Shown here piece by piece: positions 23,150 through 54,886 of a stretch of 57,649 nucleotides of DNA (position 1 is the stretch's first letter; each line of letters begins with the position of its first letter). The DNA comes from Actinomycetes bacterium. Lineage in GTDB: Bacteria; Actinomycetota; Actinomycetes; Streptosporangiales; Streptosporangiaceae. The notes under the pieces were generated by a model. It was not told the origin of the DNA. It did not search any database and saw only the letters and a program-made list of their open reading frames with translations. The translations under genes were made by a program, and so were the position numbers. The stretch is from NCBI GenBank assembly GCA_021793235.1, contig JAJYTD010000024.1, positions 1 through 57,649 on the forward strand, written 5' to 3'.

Positions 23150-24973
23150 TTAGAACGCCGACTCGGGGACCTCCATCAGGTCCAGCGAGGTCTTCTCCGT
23201 GATCGCGCGCTCGGCGGACAGGCGCGGCAGGACCTGGTCGGCGAAGAACCGCGCGGCGGCGATCTTGCCGGTGTAGAAGTCCCGATCCGCCTGGCCGGCT
23301 CCGTCGAGGGCGGCCAGCGCGGCCTCGGCCTGGCGCAGCAGCAGCCAGCCCAGGACCACGTCGCCGAATCCCATCAGCAGGCGCGTGGTGTTCAGGCCCA
23401 CCTTGTACAGCTCCCGGCTGTCCTCGGCAGAGCGCATGGCGTCGCCGACCATGATCTCGACGATTCTCTCCACGTCGGCGGCTGCCTCGGCGAGGGCGGC
23501 GCGCTCTTCCTTCAGCTGCCCGTTCCCGGCCTCGCCGGCGGCGAACTCCTTGATCTCGCCGATCAGCTGCCCGAACGCCTGCCCGTTGTTCTTCACGATC
23601 TTGCGGAAGAAGAAGTCCTGCGCCTGGATCGCCGTGGTCCCCTCGTAGAGGGTGTCGATCTTGGCGTCGCGGATGTACTGCTCGATGGGGTAGTCCTGCA
23701 GGTATCCGGAGCCGCCGAGGGTCTGCAGCGACTCGGCCAGCAGCGCATAGGACCGCTCCGAGCCGACGCCCTTGACGATCGGCAGCAGCAGGTCGTTGAG
23801 CGCCTCGACGGAGCTGTGGTCCTCTCCGTTGTGCTGGGCGATCTGCACCGCGTCCTGCTGGGTGGCGGTGTAGATGACCAGGGCACGCAGTGCTTCGGCG
23901 TAGGCCTTCTGGGTCATGAGGCTGCGCCGCACGTCCGGGTGGTGGGTGATGGTCACGCGCGGGGCGGTCTTGTCCGCCATCTGGGTCAGGTCGGCGCCCT
24001 GCTTGCGCTCCTTGGCGTACTCCAGCGCGTTCAGGTAGCCGGTGGACAGGGTGGCGATCGCCTTCGTCCCCACCATCATCCGGGCGTGCTCGATGACGAG
24101 GAACATCTGCCGGATGCCGTCGTGCTTGTCGCCCACCAGGTAGCCCACGGCGGGGTGCTTGGCGCCGAAGGTCAGCTCGCAGGTGGTGGAGGCCTTCAGG
24201 CCCATCTTGTCCTCGACGTTGGTCACGTAGGCGCCGTTGCGCTCGCCCAGCGACCCGTCCTCGTTGACCAGGTATTTCGGCACCAGGAAGAGCGAGAGGC
24301 CCTTCGTTCCGGGCTTGGCCCCCTCCGGGCGGGCCAGCACCAGGTGGAAGATGTTCTCGGTCATGTCCTGCTCGGCCGAGGTGATGAACCGCTTCACACC
24401 TTCGATGTGCCAGGTGCCGTCGCCCTGGTCGATGGCCTTGGTGCGGCCGGCGCCGACATCGGAGCCCGCGTCGGGCTCGGTGAGCACCATGGTGGCGCCC
24501 CAGCCGCGGTCGATGGCCATCTGGGCGAACTTCTTCTGCGCCTCGTTGCCCTCGCGGTAGAGGATGTAGGCGAAGCCCGGACCGGCGGCGTACATGTGGA
24601 CGGCGGGGTTGGCGCCGAGGATCAGTTCCGCGGCGGCCCACACCAGAGAGCGGGGTGCGCCGAGCCCGCCGAGTTCAGGCGGCAGGTCGAGGTTGTACCA
24701 CCCGGCGTCCATGTAGTCCTGGTAGGACTTCTTCAGGCTTTCGGGCAGGGCGACGGTGTTGGTCGCCGGGTCGAACACCGGCGGGTTGCGGTCGGCGTCT
24801 TCGAAGGACTCGGCCACGGATCCAGTGGCGAGCCTGTCGACCTCATCGAGAATGGTGCGAGCCGTGTCCTCGTCCAGCTCCTCGAACGGGCCGGTTCCCA
24901 GCACGTCCTGGCGCTTGAAGACCTCAAAAAGGTTGAACTCGAGGTCACGGAGGTTGCTCTTGTAATGCGTCAT
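23150..24973 (-). CDS. Long-chain acyl-CoA dehydrogenase (FadE5-like, about 607 aa)
   Basis: ACAD domains ([20 protein letters not shown]) with an N-terminal extension, as in mycobacterial FadE5. Confidence 0.9.
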
Positions 24974-25025
24974 GGCGCGCTCCGCTGTGTCGTGGCCGCT
25001 GTGTCAGCACAGGCGATCTACCAAC

Positions 25026-25058
25026 TAGTAACAAGTCAATGTTACTACCGAGTAGTAG
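25026..25058. promoter_or_regulatory. Operator-like palindrome TAGTAACA-agtcaa-TGTTACTA plus AGTAGTAG in the low-GC fadE upstream region
   Basis: Seen 50-85 bp upstream of the fadE start. It shares a 20-mer with the region upstream of the Fe-S oxidoreductase (see findings). Confidence 0.45.
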
Positions 25059-25218
25059 ATCTTTGCCAAGGGGTGTTGTGCACCGTTTCGGTAGAGGCCC
25101 CTGTCTTCCCGTCGAACGCGGCACTCGCCGCGCCATGGGGCGATACCGGCATGCCCGACCAAGGTGACTTTTGGTAACTGCGCATCATTGGATGGATACC
25201 TTCGGTAATTTTCTCCTC

Positions 25219-26079
25219 ATGCCATCGCACCAGCATGAAGTCCTCATTGAGCTGTTCCGGAACAACCTCGCCCTGGCTCCTGAACTGCTCCACGAAGCCC
25301 TGGGCATCGAGGTCCCCGATCACAACAGGGTCTTTTTGGAGAGCTGTGACCTGACCGACGTCAACCCCACCGAGTACCGAGCCGATGTCACCGTCGCTCT
25401 CAGACGGCAGAAGGAGGTGGAGATGGCGATCATCGTGGAAGTCCAACGCAGCCCGGCCAAAAAGAAGAGACTGACCTGGCCGGTCTATGTCGCCACTCTC
25501 CGCGCGAGACTGGGCTGCCCGGTCATACTGATGGTGGTGTCCCCGAAGCAGAAAGTCGCCGATTGGTGCGCTGTCCCGATCGAACTGGGACATCCGGGAT
25601 TCGTCCTGGAGCCCCTCGTCATCGGGCCGGCCCAGGTGCCGGTGGTGACCGACCCCGTCAAGGCACGCGGCCAGCCCGAACTGTCCGTGCTCTCCGCACT
25701 GGCCCACGGCGACAGCCCCGAGGTGCTCGACGCCTTCGGTCACGCCTTGGAATCAGTGGATAGCGATAAGTTCCCCTTCTATTATGACTATGTGTCGGGA
25801 CAGTTGTCCGATGCCGCCCGCGAATACTGGGAGAAGCTCATGGCCGCCGGAACTTACGAATGGCAGACCGATATCGCCCGCAAGTACGTCTCCGAGGGCA
25901 AGGCCGAGGGCAAGGCCGAGGGTGAGGCCAACGCCGTCTTGCTGTTTCTGGCCGCGCGCGGCATCCCGGTTCCGGATGAAGCCCGCGAACGCATCACCGC
26001 TTGCACCGATCTGGGCCAGCTAGAGGTGTGGATCCGGCGTGCCGCCACGGTGGACACGGCTGATGAACTCTTCGACTGA
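25219..26079 (+). CDS. Rpn-family recombination-promoting nuclease / putative transposase (PD-(D/E)XK, DUF4351 C-terminus)
   Basis: N-terminal MPSHQHEVLIELFRN... The core (EVQRS...PVYVATL) and C-terminal region (LFLAARGIPVPDEARERI...LGQLEVWIRRAATVDTADEL) resemble YhgA/Rpn-like proteins. The start was trimmed to Met 25219. Confidence 0.5.
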   Translation: MPSHQHEVLIELFRNNLALAPELLHEALGIEVPDHNRVFLESCDLTDVNPTEYRADVTVALRRQKEVEMAIIVEVQRSPAKKKRLTWPVYVATLRARLGCPVILMVVSPKQKVADWCAVPIELGHPGFVLEPLVIGPAQVPVVTDPVKARGQPELSVLSALAHGDSPEVLDAFGHALESVDSDKFPFYYDYVSGQLSDAAREYWEKLMAAGTYEWQTDIARKYVSEGKAEGKAEGEANAVLLFLAARGIPVPDEARERITACTDLGQLEVWIRRAATVDTADELFD

Positions 26080-26103
26080 CGTCAGGCGCGCATGACGGCG
26101 GCG

Positions 26104-26984: not shown

Positions 26985-27133
26985 GCCCGGGCGGGAGCAT
27001 CGGATTCGGTGGTCTGACCGGCCAGGAGGGCACGGCCGGTGGTGCGGCCCCGCAACGGCGCGGGTCCGTGGAAACCCGCCGAGAACACGTTTCCACGGAC
27101 CCGGCAAAGGCCCCGCCCTGCTCTCCGCCGTTC

Positions 27134-30100
27134 TCACGGCGAGAAGCGCTCCGCCGCCCTCTCGATCGCCGTCTCCACCGCGCCTACACGGTCGGCCAGC
27201 AGCCCCACGGCGCCCACGGCCCGGCTCATCGGGTCCGCACCGTCACCGCCGAGGGCCTTGGACCGCAGGTAGGCGGCCTTCACCGCCGTCCACCGCTCCG
27301 CCTGCTCGGCGGTCATCGTGCCGCGCAGCTCGGCCAGCTTGAGCAGGTTGGCCTCCGCGTCGGAGGTGAGGGTCTGCGCCTCGCCCAGGTAGTGGTCGTC
27401 GATCGCCGCGGCCAGCTCGGCGTCGTTCATCACCGGCACGATCTTCTCGGCCAGCCGGTTCATGTTCCGGTAGGAGCCCTGCAGCCGGAAGGGCGGTTCG
27501 GTGCGCGACTCCTCCGCTTGTGCCGCCGAAGCGATGTAGGCCTGGTTGTTGGCCAGCACCACCTCCTGCACCGCGACCAGTTTGCGCAGCACCGCCAGAA
27601 TCTGGTCCAGCTCCACCGGTGAATAGGAGTGGGACAGCCGGTCCGGCCGCACCGACTCGTCGCCCTTGGCCAGCCGCACCAGCAGCTCGATGTCGCCGCG
27701 GTCCCGCGTGGACAGCGGTGCCAGGACCGGGTTGGACGTCAGCGCGTTCTCGATGTAGCTCAGCGCGAACAGCTCATCCTTGCCCGACAGCACGTCGCCC
27801 AGGTTGTACACGTCGGCGCGGTTGGCCAGCATGTCCGGGACCCGGAACCGCTGCCCCTCTTCGGTGTAGGGGTTACCGGCCATGCACACCGCGAACCGCT
27901 TGCCACGCAGGTCATAGGTGCGGGTACGGCCGTCCCACACCCCCTCCATCCGACGCTGCCCGTCGCACAGCGAGATGAACTTCTGCAGCAGTTCCGGCGA
28001 CGTGTGCTGGATGTCGTCCAGGTACAGCAGCGTGTTGCTGCCCATCTCCAACGCGAAGGAGATCTTCTCGACCTCCTGGCGCGCCGTCGCGTCAGGCGCA
28101 TCGGCAGGGTCCAGCGAGGTCACGGAGTGGCCCAGCGCCGGCCCGTTGACCTTGACGAACACCAGCCCCAGCCGGCTCGCCACATACTCCATCAGCGTGG
28201 TCTTGCCATACCCCGGCGGGGAGATGAGCAGCAGCAGTCCGCTCTGGTCGGTGCGCCTGCTATCGCCGGCCGCCCCCACCTGCTTGGCGAGGTTGTCGCC
28301 GATCAGCGGCAGATAGACCTCGTCCAGCAGCCGGTTGCGCACGAACCCGCTCATCACCTTCGGCCGGTACTCGTCCAGCCGCAGCCCGCGCCGCTCGCGC
28401 TCCACCAGCTCGTTGCGCCGCCGCTGGTACTCCCGGTAGGCCGGGACCTCCTCAGAGCGGAACCGCCGGGTCCGGGCCAGCAGCTCATCGAGCCGGAACA
28501 CCAGGCGCCGGTCGACGATGCGGGGGTGGGTCCCGAGCAGCCCGCTCACCTCCGCCGACAGCGACGCCGACGAGTCGTGGCGGTGCAGGGCAGAACCGCA
28601 CAGCTCGATCGCCACCGCCTCCGGCAGATCCGCCTCGCTCACCTCCTCTCCGGCCGTGGCCGAAAACGAGTTCAGCCACGCGGTGACGAGCTGGTGCCGG
28701 GCGGCCAGGTCACCACCCAGAGCCCGCAGGTCCTCCGCGAACTCCTGGCGCGACTTCGACCGCGCACCGCCGAGCGCGCGGCGGAACCGGTCCAGCAAGT
28801 CGCGGGCCCCTGCGCTGGTGACGAACCCCGAAGGTGCCCCGGCCACCTCCTCGAACAGGTACTCACCGGCGAGGTCGGTCTCGGCCGCCGCCCCGTCCAG
28901 CCCCGCCTCGGCCAGGAACGCGGCGATGGCCGAACCCAGTTCCGCGTACAGTCCGTTGATCTCCGCCGACCGGCGCGAACCGAAGATCGTCCGCGCCCGC
29001 GCCAGCGACGCCGCCCGCGTCGTCCACGCGGTCCTGGACTCCTCGTCGGTGCCGAACGCCCAGAACAACTGGGCGGCGGCCCGCGCCTGCGGCGGGTAGC
29101 GCAGCAGACCGGCACTGGTGTGCAGCCGCAGCAGCGCTTCGAGGAGCAGAGCGGCGTCGTGGTCGTGCACACCCCGCTCATACCCCTCGTCGTAACGGGT
29201 CTCGGCGACCGCGCGGACCACATCGAGCAGCCCGCCGGCTGCGTCGACGCCCCGCACCGCCGCCTCGTGAAGCACGTCAAGGGTCACCCCCTCGTCGCCG
29301 TTCTCGGCGGCGGCCAGGACCGAGGCGGCCAAATACTCGGCCCGGTACACCTCCGGGGACTCCGACACCAGCAGCCGGTCCCAGAACCGGCGGGTCGCGG
29401 CGAACTCGGCGTCGCGCACCGGCGCCCGGTAGTCCGTCCCGGTGATGCTGATCGCCATCTCGCCGTCGTGCGGCACCATCGTCAGGTCGACCGGTTGGGT
29501 GTTGACGGCGAAGCGGTGCTGCCCCAACCGGATGCTCTCGCCGCCGTCGTCGAACAGGTCGATGCGGTCCCGCAGCGCCCGGCCGGCCTCCTGCCGGGCG
29601 GCCTTGACGCGCCCCTCCAGCTCTTCGGCGCGGACCTGGTCGCCCAGCGAGCGCAGCTCCTCCGTGCTGGCGCGCAGCTTGGCCACCATGGGGTCGGAGG
29701 CGAAGTAGGTGTTCACGTCATCCAGCGAATCCAGCGACATGACCCGCCGGCTCACACTGGTGAGGATCCGCTCAGCGGACTCCACCAGCCGGTCCGCGCG
29801 CCGGGCGCGTTCGTCGAGCAGCGTCTGCTTGCGCGCCGAGAACGCCTCGTAGACGTCCTCCCGCTTGGTGGCCAGATCACCGAGGAAATCGTCGAACTCC
29901 GCGAACCGCGACTCCAGGTTCTCGATCTGCAGCATCAGCCGGCCGAGCTGCTCGTCGCAGCGGTCCGGCGTGTCCGACGCCGCCAGCGCGCCGGTGACGG
30001 CCTGGCCCAGCAGCGCGAACTCCGCGGCGAACTCGGCGCGCCCCTCGGAGTCCAGCAGCTGCCTGCGGCGCGTCTCCAACGTGGCGCGCGCCCGGTTGAT

Positions 30101-32170
30101 CCCCCCTAGGACCGCACCGATCCGCTCCAGGATCTGCGTGCGCACCAGCGCGTCGGCGACGTCAAGAGAACCCACGACCTCGGTGACGATTTCCAGGCCC
30201 TCGGTCTGCTCCGCCAGCCGCTCGCCCACCGGGCCGGCTTCGGCGACCGTCGCGATCCCCTCGGCGTCGGCGACCAGCCGGTCCACCTCGGTGTGGTAGC
30301 CGGCGAAAGCGTCGTCGCCCTGCAGGAAGTCGATGGCGCGCCGCCCCGAGGAGGCGAGTTCGTCGGCGAGCTCGCTGTCCAGCTCATCCACCCGGTCGGT
30401 GTCGACGTAGCGCATCTCCCGCACCGTCACCAGGTGGCCCTGGGCGCGGCGCAGCTCGGCCAGCCGTGACACCCACGCATCGGCCGACCGCAGCGTCTCA
30501 CTCCGCGCGCGCCGGATCAAAGACGTGATCTGTGCCGCCGCCTCCTCCAGGGCGGACTCGGCCTGCCCGGTGAGCGCCTGCACCTTCTCGAACTCGTCCA
30601 GCACCTGCTCCGCGGTGGACCGCACCTCGGTGAGCGGGCCGTACAGGTCGCCGAGTTCCTTGTCGTCCAGCCAGTGGTAGTGGTCGAACACCCGCCGGCA
30701 GGCCGCGATCAGCGCCTCGAACACCGCGGTCGACGGCGACATCTCCGCCACCATCCGGGTCACCGACAGGCAGTCGGAGATCCCCCGCACCAGCTCGGCG
30801 TTGCCGATCCGCTCCAGCGGCCCGGTACCGACCGGCTGGGCGGCCGCGTACACATCGGACACGTAGGGGGTCTGCCACACCTGCATGGGGTGCACCCGGG
30901 TGGGCTCCTCGGAGACCGCCCGGAACACCACGAGCGTTCCGTCGTCGAACAGCGAGTACCCGTGGCACGGGATCGGGGTGGCGACCTCCTTGCGGATGAC
31001 GTTGTAGGGCAGCAGCAGGCTGCGCCCCTCCTGGCGGGCGTGGAACACATAGAGCACGTCCTCGCCGTTGGGCGAGCGGATGACCTGCTCGAACTCCAGG
31101 TCCTTGATTACCGCGTCGAACGTCTTGACCGCGCCGGTGGCCAGGTAGTAGCCGCCGGGGAAGATGATGCCCTGGTCCTCGGGCAGCCTGCGGCACGCCT
31201 GCCCGATCCCGTCCAGCCGGACGACGTCCTTGGTCCTGGTGTTGAACACCAGGTACCGCCACTCGGTCTCGTTGTAGGGCAGGATCCGCAGCAGGATCAG
31301 CGCGCCGACACGGGCGTAGTAGACATCGGCGTCGGCCAGGCTCTGCAGCGGCTCGTCGACGGGTTCGCTGTAGATCCCCTCGCCCACCTCGGTGTTGTTC
31401 TCGACCTTGATGGTCAGGTCTCCGCCGACCGCCTCCACGAACATTTCACCGAGGATGGAGATGTGCGGGTGCCGCCCCAGGACATGGTCCTCGCGCGTGG
31501 CCTCGATCCACTCGAAGTCGTGAGGCGGCGGAAAGACGTGGTCGCGGTCGCCCTGGTTGTCGAGGTATTCGACCTCCCCGGCCGGGCTCACCGACCAGCG
31601 CAGCACCTTGACGTCCTCGGTGCGCGGCCCCGTCTGGAATACCGCCAGCAGCTTGCCCTCGACCCGCCGCAACTGCAGCAGGCGGGTGTCGCGGTAGTAG
31701 CGGTACAGCTCGCTGAAGTCCCGCTCGAACTGCGGGGCGCGCAGCAGCTCCGGGAACTCGCCGTGTCCGGCCGCGTCGAACCGGAACCCGTCTTCGGCGC
31801 CGCCGTCCGCGGCCGCACCGCCACCCGTGCCCCGCACGAACGTGTGCAGCGAGAATACATCGTCGACGGCGGTCTCGGGCTTCAACCCGATGAACACGTT
31901 GTAGCCGAACAGCATGAACCCGCCGACCGAGACGATGTCGCGCGGCACACAGTTGTTCTCGGTCCGGATCCGCTCGGTGCCGATCAGCCGCAGCTCGCTG
32001 CCGCCGAACACCTCCAGGCGTCGGCGGTTCAGCTCCTCGGCCCTTCGGGCGAGCTCCTCAGCCCGGCCGGACAGCCGCTCCCGCAGCACCTCGTAGGTAC
32101 CCGCGTCCAGCCCGCTGGCCGGGGAGGAGCCCGCCGCGCCGGCGGGCTCCTCGGTCACGACATCGGTCAC
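27134..32170 (-). CDS. Giant (1678 aa) multidomain protein with an embedded MoxR/AAA_5-type AAA+ ATPase module, flotillin-associated
   Basis: Walker A LLLISPPGYGKTT, Walker B LLYLDDIQH, sensor/arginine-finger region CMAGNPYTEEGQRFRVPDMLANRADV (MoxR-like). Long alpha-helical segments flank the ATPase module. The start is 7 bp after the flotillin stop. Strong GC3 bias over the full length. Confidence 0.8.
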   Translation of the reverse strand: MTDVVTEEPAGAAGSSPASGLDAGTYEVLRERLSGRAEELARRAEELNRRRLEVFGGSELRLIGTERIRTENNCVPRDIVSVGGFMLFGYNVFIGLKPETAVDDVFSLHTFVRGTGGGAAADGGAEDGFRFDAAGHGEFPELLRAPQFERDFSELYRYYRDTRLLQLRRVEGKLLAVFQTGPRTEDVKVLRWSVSPAGEVEYLDNQGDRDHVFPPPHDFEWIEATREDHVLGRHPHISILGEMFVEAVGGDLTIKVENNTEVGEGIYSEPVDEPLQSLADADVYYARVGALILLRILPYNETEWRYLVFNTRTKDVVRLDGIGQACRRLPEDQGIIFPGGYYLATGAVKTFDAVIKDLEFEQVIRSPNGEDVLYVFHARQEGRSLLLPYNVIRKEVATPIPCHGYSLFDDGTLVVFRAVSEEPTRVHPMQVWQTPYVSDVYAAAQPVGTGPLERIGNAELVRGISDCLSVTRMVAEMSPSTAVFEALIAACRRVFDHYHWLDDKELGDLYGPLTEVRSTAEQVLDEFEKVQALTGQAESALEEAAAQITSLIRRARSETLRSADAWVSRLAELRRAQGHLVTVREMRYVDTDRVDELDSELADELASSGRRAIDFLQGDDAFAGYHTEVDRLVADAEGIATVAEAGPVGERLAEQTEGLEIVTEVVGSLDVADALVRTQILERIGAVLGGINRARATLETRRRQLLDSEGRAEFAAEFALLGQAVTGALAASDTPDRCDEQLGRLMLQIENLESRFAEFDDFLGDLATKREDVYEAFSARKQTLLDERARRADRLVESAERILTSVSRRVMSLDSLDDVNTYFASDPMVAKLRASTEELRSLGDQVRAEELEGRVKAARQEAGRALRDRIDLFDDGGESIRLGQHRFAVNTQPVDLTMVPHDGEMAISITGTDYRAPVRDAEFAATRRFWDRLLVSESPEVYRAEYLAASVLAAAENGDEGVTLDVLHEAAVRGVDAAGGLLDVVRAVAETRYDEGYERGVHDHDAALLLEALLRLHTSAGLLRYPPQARAAAQLFWAFGTDEESRTAWTTRAASLARARTIFGSRRSAEINGLYAELGSAIAAFLAEAGLDGAAAETDLAGEYLFEEVAGAPSGFVTSAGARDLLDRFRRALGGARSKSRQEFAEDLRALGGDLAARHQLVTAWLNSFSATAGEEVSEADLPEAVAIELCGSALHRHDSSASLSAEVSGLLGTHPRIVDRRLVFRLDELLARTRRFRSEEVPAYREYQRRRNELVERERRGLRLDEYRPKVMSGFVRNRLLDEVYLPLIGDNLAKQVGAAGDSRRTDQSGLLLLISPPGYGKTTLMEYVASRLGLVFVKVNGPALGHSVTSLDPADAPDATARQEVEKISFALEMGSNTLLYLDDIQHTSPELLQKFISLCDGQRRMEGVWDGRTRTYDLRGKRFAVCMAGNPYTEEGQRFRVPDMLANRADVYNLGDVLSGKDELFALSYIENALTSNPVLAPLSTRDRGDIELLVRLAKGDESVRPDRLSHSYSPVELDQILAVLRKLVAVQEVVLANNQAYIASAAQAEESRTEPPFRLQGSYRNMNRLAEKIVPVMNDAELAAAIDDHYLGEAQTLTSDAEANLLKLAELRGTMTAEQAERWTAVKAAYLRSKALGGDGADPMSRAVGAVGLLADRVGAVETAIERAAERFSP

Positions 32171-32177
32171 CTATCCG

Positions 32178-34187
32178 TCACCGCTTCACACCGTCGAGGG
32201 CGGCCACGGGCGCCTCGGCGACGCCGAGGTGCTGCGCGGTTTTCAACAGCTCCTGCATCTTGCCCGCGTCAGGGCCGCCCGCGTTGATGAGCTTCACCAG
32301 CAGCGCCGACAGCGTGAGGTTCTTGATGTCGGCGGTGTCCACCGACCCCAGCACCCGGGAGATGTCGTCGGCGAAGCTGCCCGAACCGTCCAGCCAGGAC
32401 CCGGCCAGGGACTGGGCCACATCGGAGTTCTCCACGAACCCGTCCACGGCCTTGCCCATCCCGATGGAGTTGACCATCCGGTCGAAGAACATGCCGTCGC
32501 CGCCGACGATGTTGATGTCGGCCTTCTCCAGGCCGGTCGCCAGCACCGACGCCTGGGCCTCGGCGACCTGGCGGTGTACGTCGATCCCGGCGAGCCGGAT
32601 GTCCTTCTCGGTCTCCAGGCGCAGGCGGTACTCTTCGTGCTCGCGGCTGATCTCGTCGAGCGCGGCCATCGCGCCGGCCTTCTCGTTGAGCCCCTCGGCT
32701 TCGGCCTTGAGCTTCTCGCGGATGGCTTCGGCTTCGGCGAGCGCCTTCTCGCGCGCCACAGCGGCCTCCGCGCGGCCGACCTTATCGATCGCCTCGGCGT
32801 CCTGCTCGCGCACCTGGACCTCGGCCAGGCCCGCGGCGGCGGCTTCGGCCTGCAGCCCTTCGGCCAGACGGATCTTGGCGCGGGTGTCGAGTTCGGCGGC
32901 CTGCTGGCGGGCTTCGGCCAGGGTCATCTCCTCGGCGGCCTTGTGCTTGGCCGCCTCCTCGGCGGCTTCGGCCGCCTTGATGTCCTTGACCAGGTTCTCC
33001 TGCGCTTCGGCCTCGGCGTGGATGATGACCGCCTGCCGCTGGCGCTCGGCCTCCTCGACCGCGCGCAGCCGCTTGATGTTCTCCTCCTGCTCAGCGACGG
33101 TCTTCTCGACCGCGATCCGCTCCCGGATCACCTCGGCGACCTCGCGCTTTTCGCCCTCGACCTCCTTGTCCTTGGCGATACGGGACAGTTCGGTCTCGCG
33201 CTCGCGGCCGATGACCTCCAGCAGCCGATCCTTTTCGATGCGTTCGGTCTCGATGGAGATGACGCGTTCGCGGTTCTTCTCCGCGACGGCGATCTCCCGC
33301 TTCTGGTTCTCCTGCTGCACGCCCAGCTGCTCGTCGGTGCGCAGGTGCGCCTGCTGCGCCTTGAGCCGCTCCTCGGCCTGGACCCGGGCGGTCTCGGCCT
33401 CTTCGCGGGCCCGGATGATCTCGATCTCCCGCTTGGCCTTGGCCTCGGCTTCCTCCCGGCGCCGCTCCAGCTCCGCGAGGGTCTCCGCGGCCTCGGTGTC
33501 CTGCCGGTCGATCTCCTTGCGGCGGTCGTTCTCCAGCTCGTTGGTCTGCTTGTGCTGCGCGGAGGTGAGTTCGGTGATCTTACTGATGCCCTGGGCGTCG
33601 AGGATGTTGTCCCGGTCGAGCTGGCTCAGCGGGGTCTGTTCGAGGTAGTCGATCGCGGCGTCCTCAAGGATGTACCCGTTGAGGTCGGTGCCGATGAGGG
33701 CGACGATCCGGTCCCGGAACTCGTCGCGCTTGGTGTAGAGGTCCTCGAAGTCGAAGTGCTTGCCGACGGTCTTGAGCGCCTCGGAGAACTTGGCGTTGAA
33801 CAGCTGCTGCAAGGTCTCCTGGTCGCTGGCCCGGTCGGTGCCGATGGACTGGGCGACCTTGATGACGTCTTCGAGGGTCTTGTTGACGCGGACGAAGAAG
33901 GTGATGCTGATGTCCGCGCGGATGTTGTCCTGGCAGATCAGCCCTTCGCGGCCGCTGCGGTTGATCTCCATGGTCTTGACCGAGATGTCCATCACCTCGG
34001 CCTTGTGCAGCACGGGAAGAACGACAGCACCGGTGAAGGTCACGTCGACTTTTTTGACCTTGGAGATGATCAGCGCCCGGCCCTGCTCGACTTTGCGGAA
34101 GAGTCGGGTGACCACGAATAGCAGGGCGATGACGATGAGGAGTGCGACGGCGAGCAGGATGCCGAACGCGGGAGCGATGATGTCCAT
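32178..34187 (-). CDS. Flotillin-like SPFH/Band-7 protein (YqiK/FloT-like, 669 aa)
   Basis: N-terminal TM helix, an SPFH domain, then about 300 aa of E/A/R/K-rich coiled-coil and a C-terminal flotillin tail. Confidence 0.85.
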   Translation of the reverse strand: MDIIAPAFGILLAVALLIVIALLFVVTRLFRKVEQGRALIISKVKKVDVTFTGAVVLPVLHKAEVMDISVKTMEINRSGREGLICQDNIRADISITFFVRVNKTLEDVIKVAQSIGTDRASDQETLQQLFNAKFSEALKTVGKHFDFEDLYTKRDEFRDRIVALIGTDLNGYILEDAAIDYLEQTPLSQLDRDNILDAQGISKITELTSAQHKQTNELENDRRKEIDRQDTEAAETLAELERRREEAEAKAKREIEIIRAREEAETARVQAEERLKAQQAHLRTDEQLGVQQENQKREIAVAEKNRERVISIETERIEKDRLLEVIGRERETELSRIAKDKEVEGEKREVAEVIRERIAVEKTVAEQEENIKRLRAVEEAERQRQAVIIHAEAEAQENLVKDIKAAEAAEEAAKHKAAEEMTLAEARQQAAELDTRAKIRLAEGLQAEAAAAGLAEVQVREQDAEAIDKVGRAEAAVAREKALAEAEAIREKLKAEAEGLNEKAGAMAALDEISREHEEYRLRLETEKDIRLAGIDVHRQVAEAQASVLATGLEKADINIVGGDGMFFDRMVNSIGMGKAVDGFVENSDVAQSLAGSWLDGSGSFADDISRVLGSVDTADIKNLTLSALLVKLINAGGPDAGKMQELLKTAQHLGVAEAPVAALDGVKR

Positions 34188-34250
34188 CAGGCAGGGATCT
34201 CTCTGTCGGATGCGATCAGGGGATCAGAGGTGGTGTGGCGCGCGCAAAGC

Positions 34251-34307
34251 ATGGGGGAGCGGATCGGTGCACCCTTAGGGATGGGGGAGCGGATCAGTTC
34301 ACCCTTC
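34251..34307. repeat. Two tandem about 27-bp direct repeats (ATGGGGGAGCGGATCrGTkCACCCTT) in the flotillin promoter region
   Basis: Seen: atgggggagcggatcggtgcacccttaggg / atgggggagcggatcagttcacccttctga, period 30 bp, 65-120 bp upstream of the flotillin start. Confidence 0.55.
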
Positions 34308-34377
34308 TGACGTTGGGTTTCGGCAACAGGTTCCGTGTTCTTTGGCCGTGAGCGGCCAGCGGCGGCCCATGGCCGGG

Positions 34378-35088
34378 TCAGGACAGGCCGGGATCCAGCG
34401 CGGCGTCGAAAGCGGTGACCCAGAAGAACTCGCCTTCAGCGTCGTAGTCGAAGATCAGCGCGGTGCTGCCGGAGGTGAGGTCCTCATCGCCGGTCTGGCG
34501 GACCTGGATGATCGCGGAGGAGCCGTCCGCGGAGGTGATCTCGGCCTGTCCGAACTCGCGATCCACGCGGCCGGTGCGCACGATGCACGTCTGGCCGACG
34601 AAATCTTTGCGGGAGGACCCGCGCTGGTTCGGCAGGAACCGCCGCAGGCCCATGACGACACCGCTGGTGAACGCCCACGCGACGATGACCGCTGCGGCCA
34701 GCACGAGCAGCCCAAGGGCGATGAGGAGCGGAGTGGAGTCCACCCCGAGGGAGTCGATCAGCACGGTTCCCACCAGGCTCGCGAACCAGGCCACCGCGAT
34801 CAGCAGTGACAGCACGACGGTGACGGGTACCCCGCCCAGGCCGATACCGGGGAAGAAGGCGCCGAAGCCGCCGGTGCCGGTGTCGACATCGGTGTCGAGT
34901 AGGTCGGTGTCGACGGCGCCCAGTATGACGAAGACCCAGTAGCCGATGACGACCAGCAGCATGAAACTGAACAGGCCGGCAGGGAAACCGAGCACCGCAC
35001 CGAAGAACTCAACCATGACCCGCCGCACCGACCCCCAACCTGAACCACTGGCCACCGCTTGCCCTGCGACCTTACCGAACCAGGTCAC
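34378..35088 (-). CDS. NfeD-like / YqiJ-like membrane protein (flotillin partner)
   Basis: Multi-TM N-terminal region, then a C-terminal soluble beta-rich (OB-like) domain (QTCIVRTGRVDREFGQAEITSADGSSAIIQVRQ). It is upstream of and co-oriented with flotillin. Confidence 0.65.
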   Translation of the reverse strand: MTWFGKVAGQAVASGSGWGSVRRVMVEFFGAVLGFPAGLFSFMLLVVIGYWVFVILGAVDTDLLDTDVDTGTGGFGAFFPGIGLGGVPVTVVLSLLIAVAWFASLVGTVLIDSLGVDSTPLLIALGLLVLAAAVIVAWAFTSGVVMGLRRFLPNQRGSSRKDFVGQTCIVRTGRVDREFGQAEITSADGSSAIIQVRQTGDEDLTSGSTALIFDYDAEGEFFWVTAFDAALDPGLS

Positions 35089-35266: not shown

Positions 35267-35536
35267 GTGAGCCGCCCGTGGGACGTCGACCCCTCTGCAC
35301 AGTTCCGCCGCCGACTTGGCAGAACAGCTGCTGAGCTTGGCGACAGCAGGGATCGTAAAGACTGTCCGGACATCTGGGAACTGACCAACGGAGATGTCGC
35401 GATCATCGGCCGGGATGTGACAGACCTCTTCTCCGCCCGACTGCCGTCAGGTGTGGGAGTCGGCGCCGATGAACGCCTTATCGTGATCCCCGGAAATATG
35501 CTCAAGGCGGCAAAACCGGACATCGAAGATGTTTGA
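35267..35536 (+). CDS. Hypothetical 89-aa protein (first gene of a coupled three-gene module)
   Basis: Good GC3 bias. Its stop overlaps the next start (ATGTTTGA). Weak resemblance to DUF397-like small proteins (C-x-D-I...G-D-V-A-I-I-G-R-D). Confidence 0.45.
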   Translation: MSRPWDVDPSAQFRRRLGRTAAELGDSRDRKDCPDIWELTNGDVAIIGRDVTDLFSARLPSGVGVGADERLIVIPGNMLKAAKPDIEDV

Positions 35537-36140
35537 TCTGGTCTGGGAGTACCCGGCGACACCGCTGAACCGCCCGGACTACCACGCCGATTCCGATCGT
35601 GTAGAAGAACGCATGTCCGGGGTCATCTGGAAGCTGGAGCGCGCACAGTACGTGTCCGAGCAGGGCGATGAGGCATGGGACGCGTTCGTCGACGGGGACT
35701 GGCCGCTGGTCATGGCGATCTACGAGAGCGAACGCGATGCCATCCGGAAGGCCGTGGAGGAGGAGGCGAAACAGGGGGTGGAGTTCCGCCGACTGCGCAT
35801 AGTGGAGCTTCCCCCGAGCTCCTACATCCGCTGGGAGCTTCCCAGCCTGCGGATATCCGCCGAATGCGGGCGTCTGATCAGAGTGCTGGATGCACGCCGG
35901 ATTGCGGATTTGGAGCGGAAGTATCCCCTACCGGAAATGCTGGTCTGCGGTGATCACGCCCTTTACCACGTCCAGTACGACGAGCAGAAGGTGCCGATCG
36001 GTGCGCGGAAGATCGACGACCGGCAAATTGTGGGCTCGGCAGCCGCGTCTGTGGCGGCGTTGTACGCTCAGGCAGAGCCGTTGACGGACTTCGTTGAACG
36101 GGAGATCACCCCACTGGGGCCACCAAAGTACGCGGAATGA
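35529..36140 (+). CDS. Hypothetical 203-aa protein (second gene of the module)
   Basis: Overlaps both neighbours by 8 nt and 4 nt. No recognisable catalytic motif by eye. Confidence 0.5.
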   Translation: MFDLVWEYPATPLNRPDYHADSDRVEERMSGVIWKLERAQYVSEQGDEAWDAFVDGDWPLVMAIYESERDAIRKAVEEEAKQGVEFRRLRIVELPPSSYIRWELPSLRISAECGRLIRVLDARRIADLERKYPLPEMLVCGDHALYHVQYDEQKVPIGARKIDDRQIVGSAAASVAALYAQAEPLTDFVEREITPLGPPKYAE

Positions 36141-36907
36141 CACAGATAAGACGAAACGCACGCCAGGAAAGCGACCACGCCGCTGTCCGGCTGCGTTCTG
36201 CTGCTGTTTTTACTCTCATCGCGCTCCTCGCCGCGGCGGCTGTGGCCGTATCCCCTGTAGCGCTACGCGTGTTCGACGGAGCAGGCGGCGAGTGGGAGCG
36301 GCTGAGCTTCATCGGGCAGACCTACGGTGCCGTGTCCGCTCTCATCGCCGTGTTCGCGCTGGTCGGTGTGATCGGCACCCTCGTCTTCCAGGCCCGTGAC
36401 AGTCGGCGGGCGATCGAGGAAACCCGGCGCCAGGCAATGAGCGACCTGCTCAAAATGGCCATGGACGACCCCGACCTTGACGAGTGCTGGGGTCCGATTC
36501 CCCAGCCGGCCGACCCCAAGGCGCGCAAGCAGCAGCTTTACACCAACATGATCATCGCCCAGTGGAGCGCGGCTTTCGAGGCCGAGGCCATTCCGGAAGG
36601 GCGGCTGCGCCTGATCGCGCGGGAGATGTTCGAGGGCCGGCCGGGGCGCACCTACTGGCAGCGGGCAGGCCAAGGGTGGGTGTCCGGGCCGGGCAGCGCC
36701 ATGGAACTGCGTTTCGCGCGAATCCTCGACGAGGAGTACCACCGGGCCGTAGCCGTCTCGCCGGAGCCACCGCAAGAGCGGTCACCCGAGGAGAAGCGCG
36801 GACCGCGCGGACGCCGCTTCGGCACCGCCCTCCTCGCCGCGGCCACCTTCGCCGCCGGGGCTGCCACGGCCGCGGCTGTCGCCTCGGGCCGGCGTCGCCC
36901 GAGCTGA
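36137..36907 (+). CDS. Hypothetical membrane protein, 256 aa (third gene of the module)
   Basis: Two N-terminal TM helices (AVFTLIALLAAAAVAV; TYGAVSALIAVFALVGVIGTLVF), then a soluble domain and an Ala-rich tail. Its start overlaps the upstream stop (ATGA). Confidence 0.45.
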   Translation: MTQIRRNARQESDHAAVRLRSAAVFTLIALLAAAAVAVSPVALRVFDGAGGEWERLSFIGQTYGAVSALIAVFALVGVIGTLVFQARDSRRAIEETRRQAMSDLLKMAMDDPDLDECWGPIPQPADPKARKQQLYTNMIIAQWSAAFEAEAIPEGRLRLIAREMFEGRPGRTYWQRAGQGWVSGPGSAMELRFARILDEEYHRAVAVSPEPPQERSPEEKRGPRGRRFGTALLAAATFAAGAATAAAVASGRRRPS

Positions 36908-37541: not shown

Positions 37542-37877
37542 TCACACGGCCCCCATTCTCGGCTGCGGGCGCGGCGCCAGCAGGGATCGGGCGACCGATG
37601 CCAGGCGTTCCAGCCGCGCGGTCTCCTCGGCCAGCACCGTGTGCCCGTCCTCGGTCAGTTGGTAATAGCGGCGGTTGCGGCCGTTGACGACCTCTTCCTT
37701 GGCGACCGAGACCAGGCCGTCGCCGGTGAGCCGGTCGAGCGCGCCGTAGAGGGTTCCGGCGCCGAGGCGCACCCGCCCGTCGGAGAGCTCCCGCACCGCC
37801 GTGATGATCGCGTATCCGTGCCGTGGTCCTTCGGTGAGGGCCAGCAGCATGAGGTAGCTCTGCTCCCGTAGTGCCAT
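37542..37877 (-). CDS. PadR-family transcriptional regulator
   Basis: LMLLALTEGPRHGYAIITAV...GTLYGALDRLTGDGLV...RRYYQLTEDG: canonical PadR winged helix. Confidence 0.85.
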   Translation of the reverse strand: MALREQSYLMLLALTEGPRHGYAIITAVRELSDGRVRLGAGTLYGALDRLTGDGLVSVAKEEVVNGRNRRYYQLTEDGHTVLAEETARLERLASVARSLLAPRPQPRMGAV

Positions 37878-38042
37878 ACTCGATATATATCAGTAAGAGA
37901 TATATAAAGGAATAGGTGGCCGGATACGGCCACGTGGAGGGCAACAGTGGTGGGCAGCGGATTCGCGGCCACCGAACGCTGCGGCGCAGAAACAGCGCAC
38001 TCGTGGGAAACCGGCCGCCGCCGTCCGTGCGTCCACGGGTCC

Positions 38043-38708
38043 ATGGAGAACAACACCGCGCCCGGGTGGGGCGCCATCGACGCCGCACTGCTACGGATCT
38101 ACCCGCAAACCGAGCCGCTGCATATGGGCACCGAGCATCCGTGGCGCCTGGGCGGTCCCCACCCCCTCGACGGCATCAGCTTCTACCCGCGAACCGACCC
38201 GGTGCCGCATTGGCACGTGGTCGGCTACGGCATGACCGAGCTGTACGACAAGGAGACGGACAACTCCGAGGAATCCGGCTGGGGGTTCGAGTTCACCTTC
38301 CGGGCGGTGCGCCGCGGTGGTGACGAAGAGCCTCCGATGTGGGCCGCGGTTCTGCTGCAGAAGCTGGGCCGCTACGTGTTCGACTCCGGTAACCGGTTCG
38401 AACCGGGGCACACCATGAAGGTCGGCGGTCCGATCGACGGCTCTGACAACGGCTCCGTGATCCGCGCGCTCGCCTTCGCCGAAGACCCCGAACTCGGCCA
38501 GATCGCCACCCCGCACGGCCGGGTCCGGTTCCTGCAGGTGATCGGGCTCAGCCTGGACGAGTACGAGGCCGCACTCGGGGGACGGGCCCATGTCCTGCTC
38601 CGGGTCCTGGGGTCCAGGATCCCGCTGGGCACCACGGACATGCGCCGGCGCTCACTGCTGGAGGACCCGAAGATCGCCGCGAGTCTGGCCCAGGCCATGC
38701 AGCATTAG
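38043..38708 (+). CDS. Suppressor-of-fused (SUFU)-like domain protein
   Basis: WHVVGYGMTELYDKETDNSEESGWGFEFTFR matches the bacterial SUFU-like signature by recollection. The start was trimmed to Met 38043. Confidence 0.6.
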   Translation: MENNTAPGWGAIDAALLRIYPQTEPLHMGTEHPWRLGGPHPLDGISFYPRTDPVPHWHVVGYGMTELYDKETDNSEESGWGFEFTFRAVRRGGDEEPPMWAAVLLQKLGRYVFDSGNRFEPGHTMKVGGPIDGSDNGSVIRALAFAEDPELGQIATPHGRVRFLQVIGLSLDEYEAALGGRAHVLLRVLGSRIPLGTTDMRRRSLLEDPKIAASLAQAMQH

Positions 38709-47783: not shown

Positions 47784-50396
<2,613 letters not shown>

Positions 50397-50550
50397 GTGT
50401 CGCCGCCCCCTTCATGCGAGCATCGCTATGTGGTTGTGCAGAGTGTCTTCTCCCCTGGCTGGGGCGCCCGCGCAGCACCAAGGCCGCGGGCCCATCCCCC
50501 GGTTGGGCCCGGCATGCGGGCACGGAGGGCCGGGACGGCTCCCGGCGTGG

Positions 50551-50982
50551 TCACCGGTCCTGTTCGGGCGGCGGAGAGGTGTTGAAGAGCGTCACCGTGG
50601 TCCGCCGAACCGGGATGAGTTCGCCGCCCTGGGACTGGGCGGAGGTGCGGCGGGCGACCGCGCTGCGCGCCGCCTGCAGTTCGTTGTGCAGATGGAAGAG
50701 GTGGTCGCGCAGTTCCGCCACCTCGCGCTGGAGCTCCAGGATGCGCTTGATCCCGGCGAGGTTGATGCCCTCCTCCTGGGACAGCCGCTGCACCTCGCGG
50801 AGCATCTGGATGTCGCGCATCGAGTAGCGCCGGCCCCGTCCCGATGCCCGGCCCGGAGAGACCAGGCCGAGCCGGTCGTACTGGCGCAGCGTCTGCGGAT
50901 GCAGTCCGGACAGTTCAGCGGCGACGGAGATCACATAGACCGGGATGTCGTCACCGAACGGTGGATTGGTCATCGCATTCAC
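50551..50982 (-). CDS. hspR: Heat-shock repressor HspR (MerR family)
   Basis: MerR HTH ([29 protein letters not shown]). Located at the end of the dnaK operon; its start overlaps the dnaJ stop. Confidence 0.85.
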
Positions 50983-52136
50983 ATCCCTTTCGCCCGCGCT
51001 TCGAGTCCGTTGCGCGGATCCTGGTCCGCTGTGGCGGCGCGGAACTTCTCCAGGGCCTCCCTGGCGTCGTTGTTCAGGTTCTTCGGTACCGCCACCTCGA
51101 TGGTGACGAGCATGTCACCCTTTGTTCCGTCACGCCGTGTCGACCCTTTGCCCCGGACCCGGAACGTGCGCCCGTTCGGGGTGCCCGGGGGGATCTTCAC
51201 GGTGACGGGAAGTCCATTGAGCGTCGGCACCCGCACATCGGCGCCGAGCACTGCCTCGGGGAAGGTCACCGGGACGGTGATCGTCAGGTTGTCGCCGGTC
51301 TTGCCGAACACGGGGTGCGGCTGCACATGTACCACCACATAGAGGTCTCCGGCCGGTCCGCCGTGCTCGCCCGGCGCACCCTTGCCCTTGATTCGGATCC
51401 GCTGCCCGTCGGACACGCCGGCCGGGATCCGCGCCTGCACCGTCCGGGAGCTCTTGCCCCGGCCGCTGCCCTGGCAGGTGGGGCACGGGTCGTCGACGAC
51501 GAGCCCGCGGCCCTTGCATTCGCTGCACGGCTCCGACAACGAGAAGCCGCCCAGGTTCGTGTTCTCATGTCCGGTCCCCGCGCATTTGGGGCACACCCGG
51601 GGACTGCTTCCGGCGTTGGCGCCGGTGCCCTTGCACGTGGGGCAGGCGGCATCGCTGCTGAGCCGGAACGACCGGGTGACTCCGGTGGCCGCCTCGTCGA
51701 AGGTCAGCCGGGTCTCGGTCTCCACGTCAGCGCCGCGGCGGGCCTGCGTCGTGGTCCGTCCTCGGCCGCCGAACAGCCCGCCGAACAAGTCGCTCAGCCG
51801 CTCGCCGCCACCGCCGCTACCGCCGGCTCCGCCTCCGCCGAACAGGTCGCCGAGGTCGAACCCGCCTGCCCCGGTCTGTCCGCCCGGCCGGTAGGAGCTC
51901 CCGAACAGCGACCGCGCGTTGTCGTACTCCTTGCGCCGTTTCTCGTCGGAAAGGACGGAGTAGGCCTCGGAGATCTCCTTGAAGCGCTCCTCGGCCTTGG
52001 GGTCGCTCTTGTTGGCGTCGGGGTGGTTCTCGCGCGCGAGCTTGCGATAGGACTGCTTGATCTCGTCCTGCGTGGCCGTCTTTGAGACTCCGAGGACCTT
52101 GTAGTAGTCCTTCTCCAGGTAGTCCTTGGTGCTCAT
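50979..52136 (-). CDS. dnaJ: Chaperone DnaJ
   Basis: J domain ([31 protein letters not shown]), G/F region, four CxxCxGxG zinc-finger repeats. Trimmed to Met 52136. Confidence 0.9.
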
Positions 52137-52262
52137 CGACGTCTGCCTTCTCCCGCTTCGCGCTCGCTGTGCTTCTTGGCTGGTAGGGGCGGTCTCCAAC
52201 TGCCGGGAGGCCGGGTGGGCCCGCCCCGGGCGCCGTGTGGGCGTCCGGGGCGGGACCGACTG

Positions 52263-53003
52263 CTACTGCTTCTCGTTGTCGTCACCGACTTCGGGGGAGT
52301 CCGCGGACTCGTCCGGGGCCGCCCCCGGGTCCTCCTCCGCGGCTTCCTCCGTGGCTTCCTGTGCGGCCTCCTGCGGCGTGTCGGTCCCGGCCGTGTCGCC
52401 GATCGGGTCCGCCACGACCACGCGGGCCGGTCGCAGGACCCGCTCCCCGATGAGGTACCCCGGCTGGAACACCTCGATCACCGACTGGACGGTGATCTCG
52501 GGGTCCGGAGAGGGCACCAGCGTCAGGGCCTCGTGCACGGTGGGGTCGAACTCGTCGCCCTTCTCCCCGTACTTCTGCAGGCCCAGCTTGGTGGCGAGCG
52601 CCTCCAAGGCCTCCCCGACCGATTTGAACCCGCCGTTGAGCTCGTTGTGCTCGCGGGCCCGGCCGATGTCGTCCAGGATGGGCAGCAGTTCGCTCACGAC
52701 CCGGGCCGTCTCCTGCTCCCGGACGGCCGTCCGGTCGCGGTCCACCCGCTTGCGGTAGTTGGCGTACTCCGCCTGCAACCGCTTGAGGTCGTCGGTGCGT
52801 TCAGCAAGCTGCTCCCGTACCGTGGCGAGTTCCGCGCCGTCGGCGGTACCCGCTTCGGGTTCGGACGGCACCTGGGAGTCCGCGGCGGGTGCCGACTCAC
52901 CCTCCGGGGTGCGCAGTTCGCCCGTCTCAGGATCGATGCGCCGCTTGTCGCGGATCACCGGCCCCTCCTGCTCCTGGCCGTTCTCGTTCTCCGGTAGCGC
53001 CAT
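52263..53003 (-). CDS. grpE: Nucleotide exchange factor GrpE
   Basis: GrpE core (LKRLQAEYANYRKRVDRD...FDPTVHEA) with acidic tails. Confidence 0.9.
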   Translation of the reverse strand: MALPENENGQEQEGPVIRDKRRIDPETGELRTPEGESAPAADSQVPSEPEAGTADGAELATVREQLAERTDDLKRLQAEYANYRKRVDRDRTAVREQETARVVSELLPILDDIGRAREHNELNGGFKSVGEALEALATKLGLQKYGEKGDEFDPTVHEALTLVPSPDPEITVQSVIEVFQPGYLIGERVLRPARVVVADPIGDTAGTDTPQEAAQEATEEAAEEDPGAAPDESADSPEVGDDNEKQ

Positions 53004-53038
53004 GTCGCTGACCCTCCTTGACTTCCGCTTTTCCCGGG

Positions 53039-54886
<1,848 letters not shown>

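Follow-up and report, generated by a model that had tools for sequence, protein, structure and literature searches.

What does a 1678-residue AAA+ protein do directly behind a flotillin gene, and is it there by chance? The question is raised by three co-oriented genes on the minus strand of a 57,649-nt stretch of actinomycete DNA (hereafter the window), which encode a small YqiJ/YuaF-type membrane protein, a flotillin-family protein of 669 amino acids (aa) and a soluble protein of 1678 aa, termed the giant in the following. An earlier note, made from the sequence alone, had drawn attention to this triad, and all three open reading frames (ORFs) were confirmed as described. Comparison with other genomes and plasmids identifies the giant as a dedicated partner of the flotillin.

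Linkage of flotillin and giant

The giant belongs to a large family: clustering at 90% identity leaves over 6500 clusters and clustering at 50% identity 1439 representatives (485 of them with E ≤ 1e-30), and at least 596 species genomes carry a member. Conservation extends over the full length and amounts to 70-80% identity across actinomycete orders and to 43-50% identity for the relatives in Deinococcus, Pseudomonas, Proteus, Hymenobacter, Halomonas, and Vibrio. The genome survey comprised 80 species-genome loci. In 78 of these, the gene immediately before the giant gene, in the same orientation, encodes a flotillin homologue, which is full length in 76 cases; the 78 include L037, whose flotillin gene is truncated at the end of the contig, and L083 with a partial match. 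L063 and L067, which contain only about 100-375 nt of upstream DNA, are uninformative with respect to this adjacency. Upstream of the flotillin gene, a YqiJ-like gene was detectable in most loci.

Apart from the actinomycetes, the triad occurs on plasmid pQBR103 of P. fluorescens SBW25, in Hymenobacter, Deinococcus, Myxococcus, Corallococcus, Flavobacterium litorale, and Agaribacterium, in metagenome-assembled genomes (MAGs) of the Clostridia, the Planctomycetota, and, in two cases, the Proteobacteria, as well as in a lineage at 32% identity, the most distant one sampled. These occurrences cover Pseudomonadota, Bacteroidota, Deinococcota, Myxococcota, and Planctomycetota, plus the Clostridia MAG. 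Co-inheritance of the three genes spans at least seven phylum-level lineages. Adjacency limited to one strain had been named beforehand as the observation that would speak against a specific association, and the genome survey clearly gave a different picture.

A one-to-one relation is seen in the plasmid collection. Among 313 plasmid records with a flotillin-like match, 13 match beyond the SPFH domain, i.e., over nearly the full length, and exactly these 13 records also carry the giant, with adjacent coordinates. The other 300 records match in the SPFH domain only and lack the giant. Flotillin subtype and giant occur one-to-one in the searched collections, and the flotillin is a distinct subtype, which in the plasmid collection is seen only alongside the giant. 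In approximately 20 loci the flotillin stop and the giant start overlap by 4 nt, and in many others the gap does not exceed 11 nt; a gap of 40-230 nt is found in most Streptomyces. The identities of flotillin and giant to the window proteins co-vary (r = 0.86, n = 83 loci).

Clustering of the flanking ORFs revealed no fourth universally conserved gene, but genus-level synteny only. In case of Streptomyces, about 20 loci contain a gene for a PucR-type regulator (GGDEF_2 + HTH_30) just upstream of the triad, e.g., L042:4841-6325, and 12 loci a gene for a 668-aa TrkA_N-domain protein just downstream, e.g., L065:14950-16956. Both neighbours represent synteny of this genus only.

Products of the three genes

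The 669-aa protein is a flotillin, as the earlier note had proposed. Its Band_7 match scores 26.4 bits (Pfam cut-off 23.6), and the alignment with YqiK of E. coli spans 484 columns with 26% identity (E 7e-34). A membrane anchor at aa 8-26 with one transmembrane segment is followed by the SPFH/Band_7 domain (aa 32-173) and a long coiled coil rich in E, A, and R; the C-terminal region is conserved among giant-linked flotillins. With 29.8 bits against a cut-off of 700 for the NCBIfam FloT equivalog NF058507, the protein is not a FloT orthologue. A sequence search of the PDB gave no match.

The giant lacks transmembrane segments and carries its AAA+ module at the C-terminal end (Table 1). Pfam assigns DUF3686 (E 2.7e-222), DUF7902, and, weakly, AAA_5/AAA at aa 1313-1438. 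Two AlphaFold2 models were computed from 40-sequence alignments of actinomycete and Bacteroidota homologues, with a mean predicted local distance difference test (pLDDT) score of 81 and 80. Foldseek matches of the N-terminal part are WD40-type propellers (DCAF1, Elp1) with low global TM-score, and those of the AAA+ part comprise RuvB, MCM, NorQ, CbbQ, and dynein, the fold being nearest to the MoxR proteins CbbQ and NorQ. By sequence, the PDB yielded only matches of Walker A length (Rix7, Cdc48, Rpt3). The module contains a Walker A motif GYGKT (1320-1324), the Walker B residues D1385-D1386, sensor-1 N1433, and R1451 as a candidate arginine finger, and a sensor-2 candidate, R1568, is situated in the helical domain behind it. 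All of these are invariant among 18 aligned sequences down to 31% identity. Due to the Foldseek matches and the invariance of the Walker A and B, sensor-1, and arginine residues, the assignment as MoxR/AAA_5-like made in the earlier note is right, the motifs are genuine, and the giant can be classified as a MoxR-like AAA+ protein whose ATPase motifs are intact. The figure of some 1100 aa outside the ATPase, mostly helical, that the earlier note had given was only partly correct: coiled coils and helices are indeed present, but about 1300 aa precede the module and a propeller is part of them.

Table 1. Features of the triad and its spacers in the window, with the predicted segments of the giant.
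Feature	Position in window	Strand	Residues of giant	Basis or remark
YqiJ/YuaF-type ("NfeD-like", DUF1449-like) membrane protein, 212 aa	34378..35016	(-)		ORF, gene call, homologues, transmembrane segments, hhalign
Flotillin-family SPFH protein, 669 aa	32178..34187	(-)		Pfam Band_7, YqiK alignment, transmembrane segment
Soluble giant, 1678 aa, named "DNA repair ATPase" in databases	27134..32170	(-)		Pfam, AlphaFold2, alignment
N-terminal helix			23-55	AlphaFold2
Pfam DUF3686 region	30674..32056	(-)	39-499	Pfam, AlphaFold2, Foldseek; made up of the N-terminal helix and the propeller in the model
Beta-propeller			about 61-433	AlphaFold2, Foldseek
Long helices / coiled coils	29555..30853	(-)	about 440-872	Pfam, AlphaFold2
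DUF7902	30059-30313	(-)	620-704	Pfam, within coiled-coil region
Small beta unit			879-917	AlphaFold2
Helical domain			939 to about 1290	AlphaFold2
AAA+ module	27731..28273	(-)	about 1300-1480	Motifs, AlphaFold2
C-terminal helical domain			1480-1678	AlphaFold2
Two direct repeats (AAGGGTGMACYGATCCGCTCCCCCAT), 26 nt each	34251-34276, 34281-34306	(-)		Spacer between first gene and flotillin gene
GC-rich hairpin, 14 bp	27062..27102	(-)		About 32 nt past giant stop, between convergent genes (giant, cbiZ)

The first protein consists of three to four hydrophobic segments and a soluble, beta-rich C-terminal domain. BLASTP relates it weakly to E. coli YqiJ (E 8e-4), and the comparison of its profile with YqiJ by hhalign gave a probability of 78.7% (E 1.7e-5, 140 columns). 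A Pfam scan returned no match to NfeD (PF01957), DUF1449, or YqiJ_N, in case of NfeD not even at E ≤ 10. At the orthologous position in other genomes, Pfam YqiJ_N is matched in the Planctomycetota MAG, and DUF1449 is annotated in Hymenobacter. Hence, the designation as NfeD-like membrane protein applies in the sense of YqiJ/YuaF, for which the membrane segments, the beta-rich domain, and the hhalign result speak, and not in the sense of the Pfam NfeD family; the protein resembles the YqiJ/YuaF branch only.

Related operons, possible function, and competing readings

The earlier note had regarded the giant AAA+ partner as foreign to the canonical flotillin operon, which implied novelty. The operon is not new. 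Ravi et al. 2024 (mSystems 9:e00847-23; PMC11237479; preprint 2020) described CesT/Tir-PspA operons with three further products, namely a YqiJ/YuaF protein with three transmembrane segments, a flotillin, and a "beta-propeller + coiled-coil + AAA+ ATPase", and found abbreviated operons without PspA to be widespread. Because this description covers both the operon and its abbreviated form, the module is not novel. The three components occur in the same order in the window, with the YqiJ/YuaF protein first, followed by the flotillin and the protein with propeller, coiled coils, and AAA+ module; the CesT/Tir-PspA dyad of the full form is missing there. The supplementary Dokdonia example of Ravi et al. 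(CesT_Tir, YqiJ-YuaF, Band-7+CC+flotillin, beta-propeller+CC+AAA-ATPase) corresponds in its order to our Hymenobacter and Flavobacterium loci, whose giants are 39-43% identical over the full length to that of the window. The same authors place the AAA+ gene beside the pair "in some cases", whereas flotillin subtype and giant are linked one-to-one in the collections searched here. Their work is computational, contains no assignment of the AAA+ clade, and proposes from genomics the same functional reading as set out below. A literature search yielded no paper on DUF3686/PF12458 and none linking flotillin to "DNA repair ATPase" or MoxR. What is added to the published account are the one-to-one linkage, the assignment to the MoxR clade, and the case against the name "DNA repair ATPase".

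In bacteria other than actinomycetes, the triad is frequently preceded by PspA/IM30 genes, which may or may not be accompanied by a CesT/Tir gene. In Hymenobacter and Flavobacterium, a Tir/CesT chaperone gene and then a PspA gene are located upstream of the triad, and in the Planctomycetota MAG two PspA genes are found at this position, this being the only PspA-linked locus that lacks a CesT/Tir-type gene. Agaribacterium carries a divergent DUF2170 (YjfI)-PspA pair next to the triad, and on pQBR103 yjfK/L/M/C-like genes are situated upstream of it. A gene for TelA (toxic-anion resistance) lies directly 3' of the giant gene, on the same strand, in the lineage at 32% identity (L089:12001-13221). 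Since neither PspA nor CesT/Tir is found in the flanks in the window, nor within 10 kb in actinomycete loci, the locus represents the abbreviated, PspA-less form of a widespread three-gene membrane module. As a separate observation, a gene for a LexA-family/HTH_3 regulator is oriented divergently upstream of CesT/Tir-PspA-triad in two loci, both from Bacteroidota (L007:577-1362 and L090:127-891), which hints at de-repression by self-cleavage or stress.

Among known flotillin operons, YqiJ-YqiK of E. coli and YuaF-FloT of B. subtilis likewise combine a small polytopic membrane protein with a flotillin downstream, and YqiK and FloT share with the flotillin of the window the N-terminal anchor, the SPFH domain, and the EA-rich coiled coil. 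In contrast to the window, yqiJK of E. coli is followed by sibD/ibsD and has no third gene, and the approximately 300 YqiK-like plasmid flotillins with an SPFH-only match are unlike the window subtype in lacking the giant. SPFH scaffolds are paired with AAA+ machines at the membrane in the cases of HflK/HflC-FtsH and of prohibitin and the m-AAA protease. FtsH, however, is a membrane-anchored protease of the classical AAA clade, whereas the giant, a soluble protein without protease domain, falls into another AAA+ clade. MoxR proteins such as CbbQ, NorQ, and RavA, to which the AAA modules of midasin and dynein are related, have a length of about 300-500 aa and depend on a partner of the VWA/MIDAS type; compared with these, the AAA+ module of the giant is placed at the C-terminal end of 1678 aa, behind a propeller and coiled coils.

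Taken together with the operon context, the remodelling machine suspected in the earlier note can be worded as follows. On the cytoplasmic side of the membrane, the flotillin would build the large oligomeric cup that is usual for such proteins, and the YqiJ-like protein would sit in the membrane beneath this cup. The giant, for which a hexameric state formed via the AAA+ module and an ATPase activity are predicted, would dock on the flotillin assembly by means of its propeller and coiled-coil arms, and ATP hydrolysis would serve to assemble, open, or dismantle flotillin assemblies. Such remodelling might be part of an envelope or membrane-stress response, with PspA provided from the operon or from elsewhere in the genome. 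As the leading reading, we infer a role of the giant as ATP-driven remodeller of flotillin assemblies in the membrane-stress response with about even confidence for and against. The stricter version, in which the giant is a dedicated ATP-driven assembly and disassembly factor for the SPFH (flotillin) cage, is tentative and, in our judgement, somewhat improbable.

Several points weigh against a remodelling of flotillin by the giant. The tail motif IKNLT..SALL of the flotillin is missing in Pseudomonas and Deinococcus, and therefore no single docking site is evident; for the same reason the C-terminal tail was rejected as a universal docking motif. Other than in the MoxR family, Walker B reads DD instead of DE, so that hydrolysis may be slow or regulatory. 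The earlier note had listed VWA among the domains to be looked for, and Pfam scans of the giant and the scanned neighbours as well as the gene lists of related loci contained none. Physical contact of giant and flotillin is presumed from gene linkage, and the literature search found no experiment on any member of the family. Moreover, a 1040-aa relative (L091:7001-10123) consists of DUF3686 and DUF7902 without an AAA+ module and has no adjoining flotillin gene, and in Flavobacterium litorale a gene for a 586-aa coiled-coil protein with a faint SMC_N match is inserted between flotillin and giant (L090:5228-6988). The AAA-less relative of L091 is located near an integrase gene and an Rhs/Tc-toxin gene and may be a decayed or repurposed copy.

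Alternatively, the flotillin could be a platform only, and the giant could act on other clients, either on the ESCRT-III-like PspA/IM30 polymers in the manner of Vps4 or on membrane proteins, which, by analogy with HflK/C-FtsH, would be extracted or chaperoned within the flotillin domain. We regard this, the main rival, as rather unlikely. The established pairing of other SPFH proteins with AAA+ proteases (HflK/C-FtsH) would suit it, whereas the MoxR/midasin/dynein clade is, to our knowledge, not known for the threading of substrates. Further support may be seen in the PspA genes directly upstream of the triad in several phyla, as in Ravi et al. 2024 (PMC11237479), and in a 2025 review according to which a Vps4-like ATPase acting on PspA seems to be absent from bacteria and the role of the Band-7 partners of PspA is undetermined. 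However, no PspA gene was detected within 10 kb in any of the actinomycete and myxobacterial loci examined (tblastn at 1e-4, with limited sensitivity), and the giant was never seen there without flotillin; therefore, flotillin and not PspA is the obligate partner.

That the triad is a horizontally spread anti-phage or conflict system acting by membrane disruption we consider very improbable. Conflict systems often contain large AAA+/NTPase proteins with propellers, copies of the triad are located on large plasmids (pQBR103, Hymenobacter, Deinococcus, Streptomyces), and AbiJ-, deaminase-, and VasI-like genes occur in the downstream flank of Agaribacterium. On the other hand, the comparison with PADLOC-DB 2.0 gave only two weak P-loop matches of the giant to IetA (E 0.003-0.008) and no match at all for the first protein and the flotillin. 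The triad is flanked in the window by housekeeping genes of like GC content, and in other genera the flanks vary and yet do not form defence islands. The identity of 70-80% across actinomycete orders is also unlike that of fast-evolving defence genes. No relative was found among 2.9 million viral contigs, which speaks against a defence function as well; on the same ground a phage origin of the triad was rejected.

The reading suggested by the database name, a DNA repair ATPase with incidental flotillin adjacency, is scarcely credible: it can draw on the Pfam description of DUF3686 and the NCBI name, on weak RuvB_N/RuvB model matches and RuvB among the Foldseek matches, and on the divergent LexA-like or HTH regulators of the two Bacteroidota loci, but the RuvB models match over P-loop length only and far below their cut-offs, and apart from the P-loop, domain scans of the giant found no domain for DNA binding, no nuclease, and none of SMC/RecN/RuvB type. 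The name, which is attached to thousands of database entries, is without support found here and misleading; it probably derives from coiled-coil similarity.

If the giant is indeed such a dedicated assembly and disassembly factor, no other energy-dependent regulator of a flotillin scaffold would have been known before it, and in the PspA-linked operons it could also be the Vps4 equivalent that bacteria have so far been missing for ESCRT-III-like membrane repair. The role of bacterial flotillins and the turnover of their assemblies are still debated, and a very large, very conserved protein that never parts from one flotillin subtype offers a handle on this question. It is present in tractable bacteria, i.e., Streptomyces, Myxococcus, P. 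fluorescens SBW25 with pQBR103, Proteus, and Vibrio.

Gene starts, spacers, and chromosomal surroundings

The reading frame of the first gene extends upstream as far as a GTG at 35088 (34378-35088, 236 aa). Because the public gene call and seven aligned homologues begin at the ATG at 35016, with the extra 24 codons unmatched in the latter, this ATG is most likely the start, which results in 212 aa. In case of the giant, the ORF starts with the GTG at 32170, 7 nt past the flotillin TGA, in agreement with the earlier note; in the public gene call, the giant begins at the following GTG (32158), 19 nt past the flotillin stop, which results in 1674 aa. Whichever GTG is used, the start of the giant is tightly linked to the flotillin stop. 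Downstream of the giant gene, a hairpin (Table 1) has a folding energy of -50.7 kcal/mol and a z-score of -3.85, and none of 200 shuffled sequences was as stable. As judged from sequence and predicted fold, it is likely the terminator of the operon.

The first gene and the flotillin gene are separated by a spacer of 190 nt, which contains two direct repeats. The earlier note had taken these for tandem 27-bp repeats in the flotillin promoter and for a sign of dedicated regulation. The repeats are real, with a unit length of 26 nt, 24 of 26 positions identical, and a period of 30 nt (2 matches versus 0 expected by chance). A promoter is unsupported, as a sigma-70 consensus scan showed no promoter-like site in the repeat region, and the idea of dedicated regulation has no support beyond the presence of the repeats: they are found nowhere else in the window and in none of the other loci fetched, among them L009 and L012 of Nocardiopsis, whose spacers differ, and the spacer shows neither an unusual RNA fold (z-score +0.36) nor an Rfam match. 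Therefore, the repeats were rejected as a conserved regulatory element, being absent from the other fetched loci and lacking a significant RNA structure and a sigma-70 site.

The window is identical to part of a contig in the MAG GCA_027322605.1, and the closest named relatives of this MAG are Nocardiopsis and Streptomonospora. The GC content is high (about 0.64-0.72), and that of the triad matches its flanks. These consist of ordinary chromosomal genes, with CbiZ, an acyl-CoA dehydrogenase, and a flavodoxin-like reductase nearby and purL/purQ-like genes, an extracytoplasmic function (ECF) sigma factor, E1 and E2 of a 2-oxoacid dehydrogenase, and dnaK-grpE-dnaJ with clpB farther away. An Rfam scan of the whole window gave no match. 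A strongly negative AT skew (-0.31) at 32001-34000, over the flotillin gene, is explained by the E/A/K/R-rich coiled coil coded on the minus strand; a similar dip is seen over dnaK.

Divergent from the triad and separated from it by an intergenic region of about 510 nt, genes for a DUF6879 protein (203 aa) and a DUF6082 protein (256 aa) form a pair with overlapping stop and start (35529-36907, +). A gene for a SUFU-like bacterial protein (PF05076, 253 aa, +) is situated beside a divergent gene for a PadR-family regulator (111 aa, -) at 37542-38708. On the other side of the triad, the GC content drops to 0.638 (versus about 0.70) at 24001-26100. This dip coincides with an ORF of approximately 295-302 aa (25171-26079, +), which has no Pfam match and is located between the acyl-CoA dehydrogenase gene and cbiZ. 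The heat-shock cluster (47784-54886, -) comprises DnaK (53039-54886), GrpE (52263-53003), DnaJ (50979-52199), and ClpB (47784-50396), and the gap of 580 nt between dnaJ and clpB could provide room for an HspR-type regulator.

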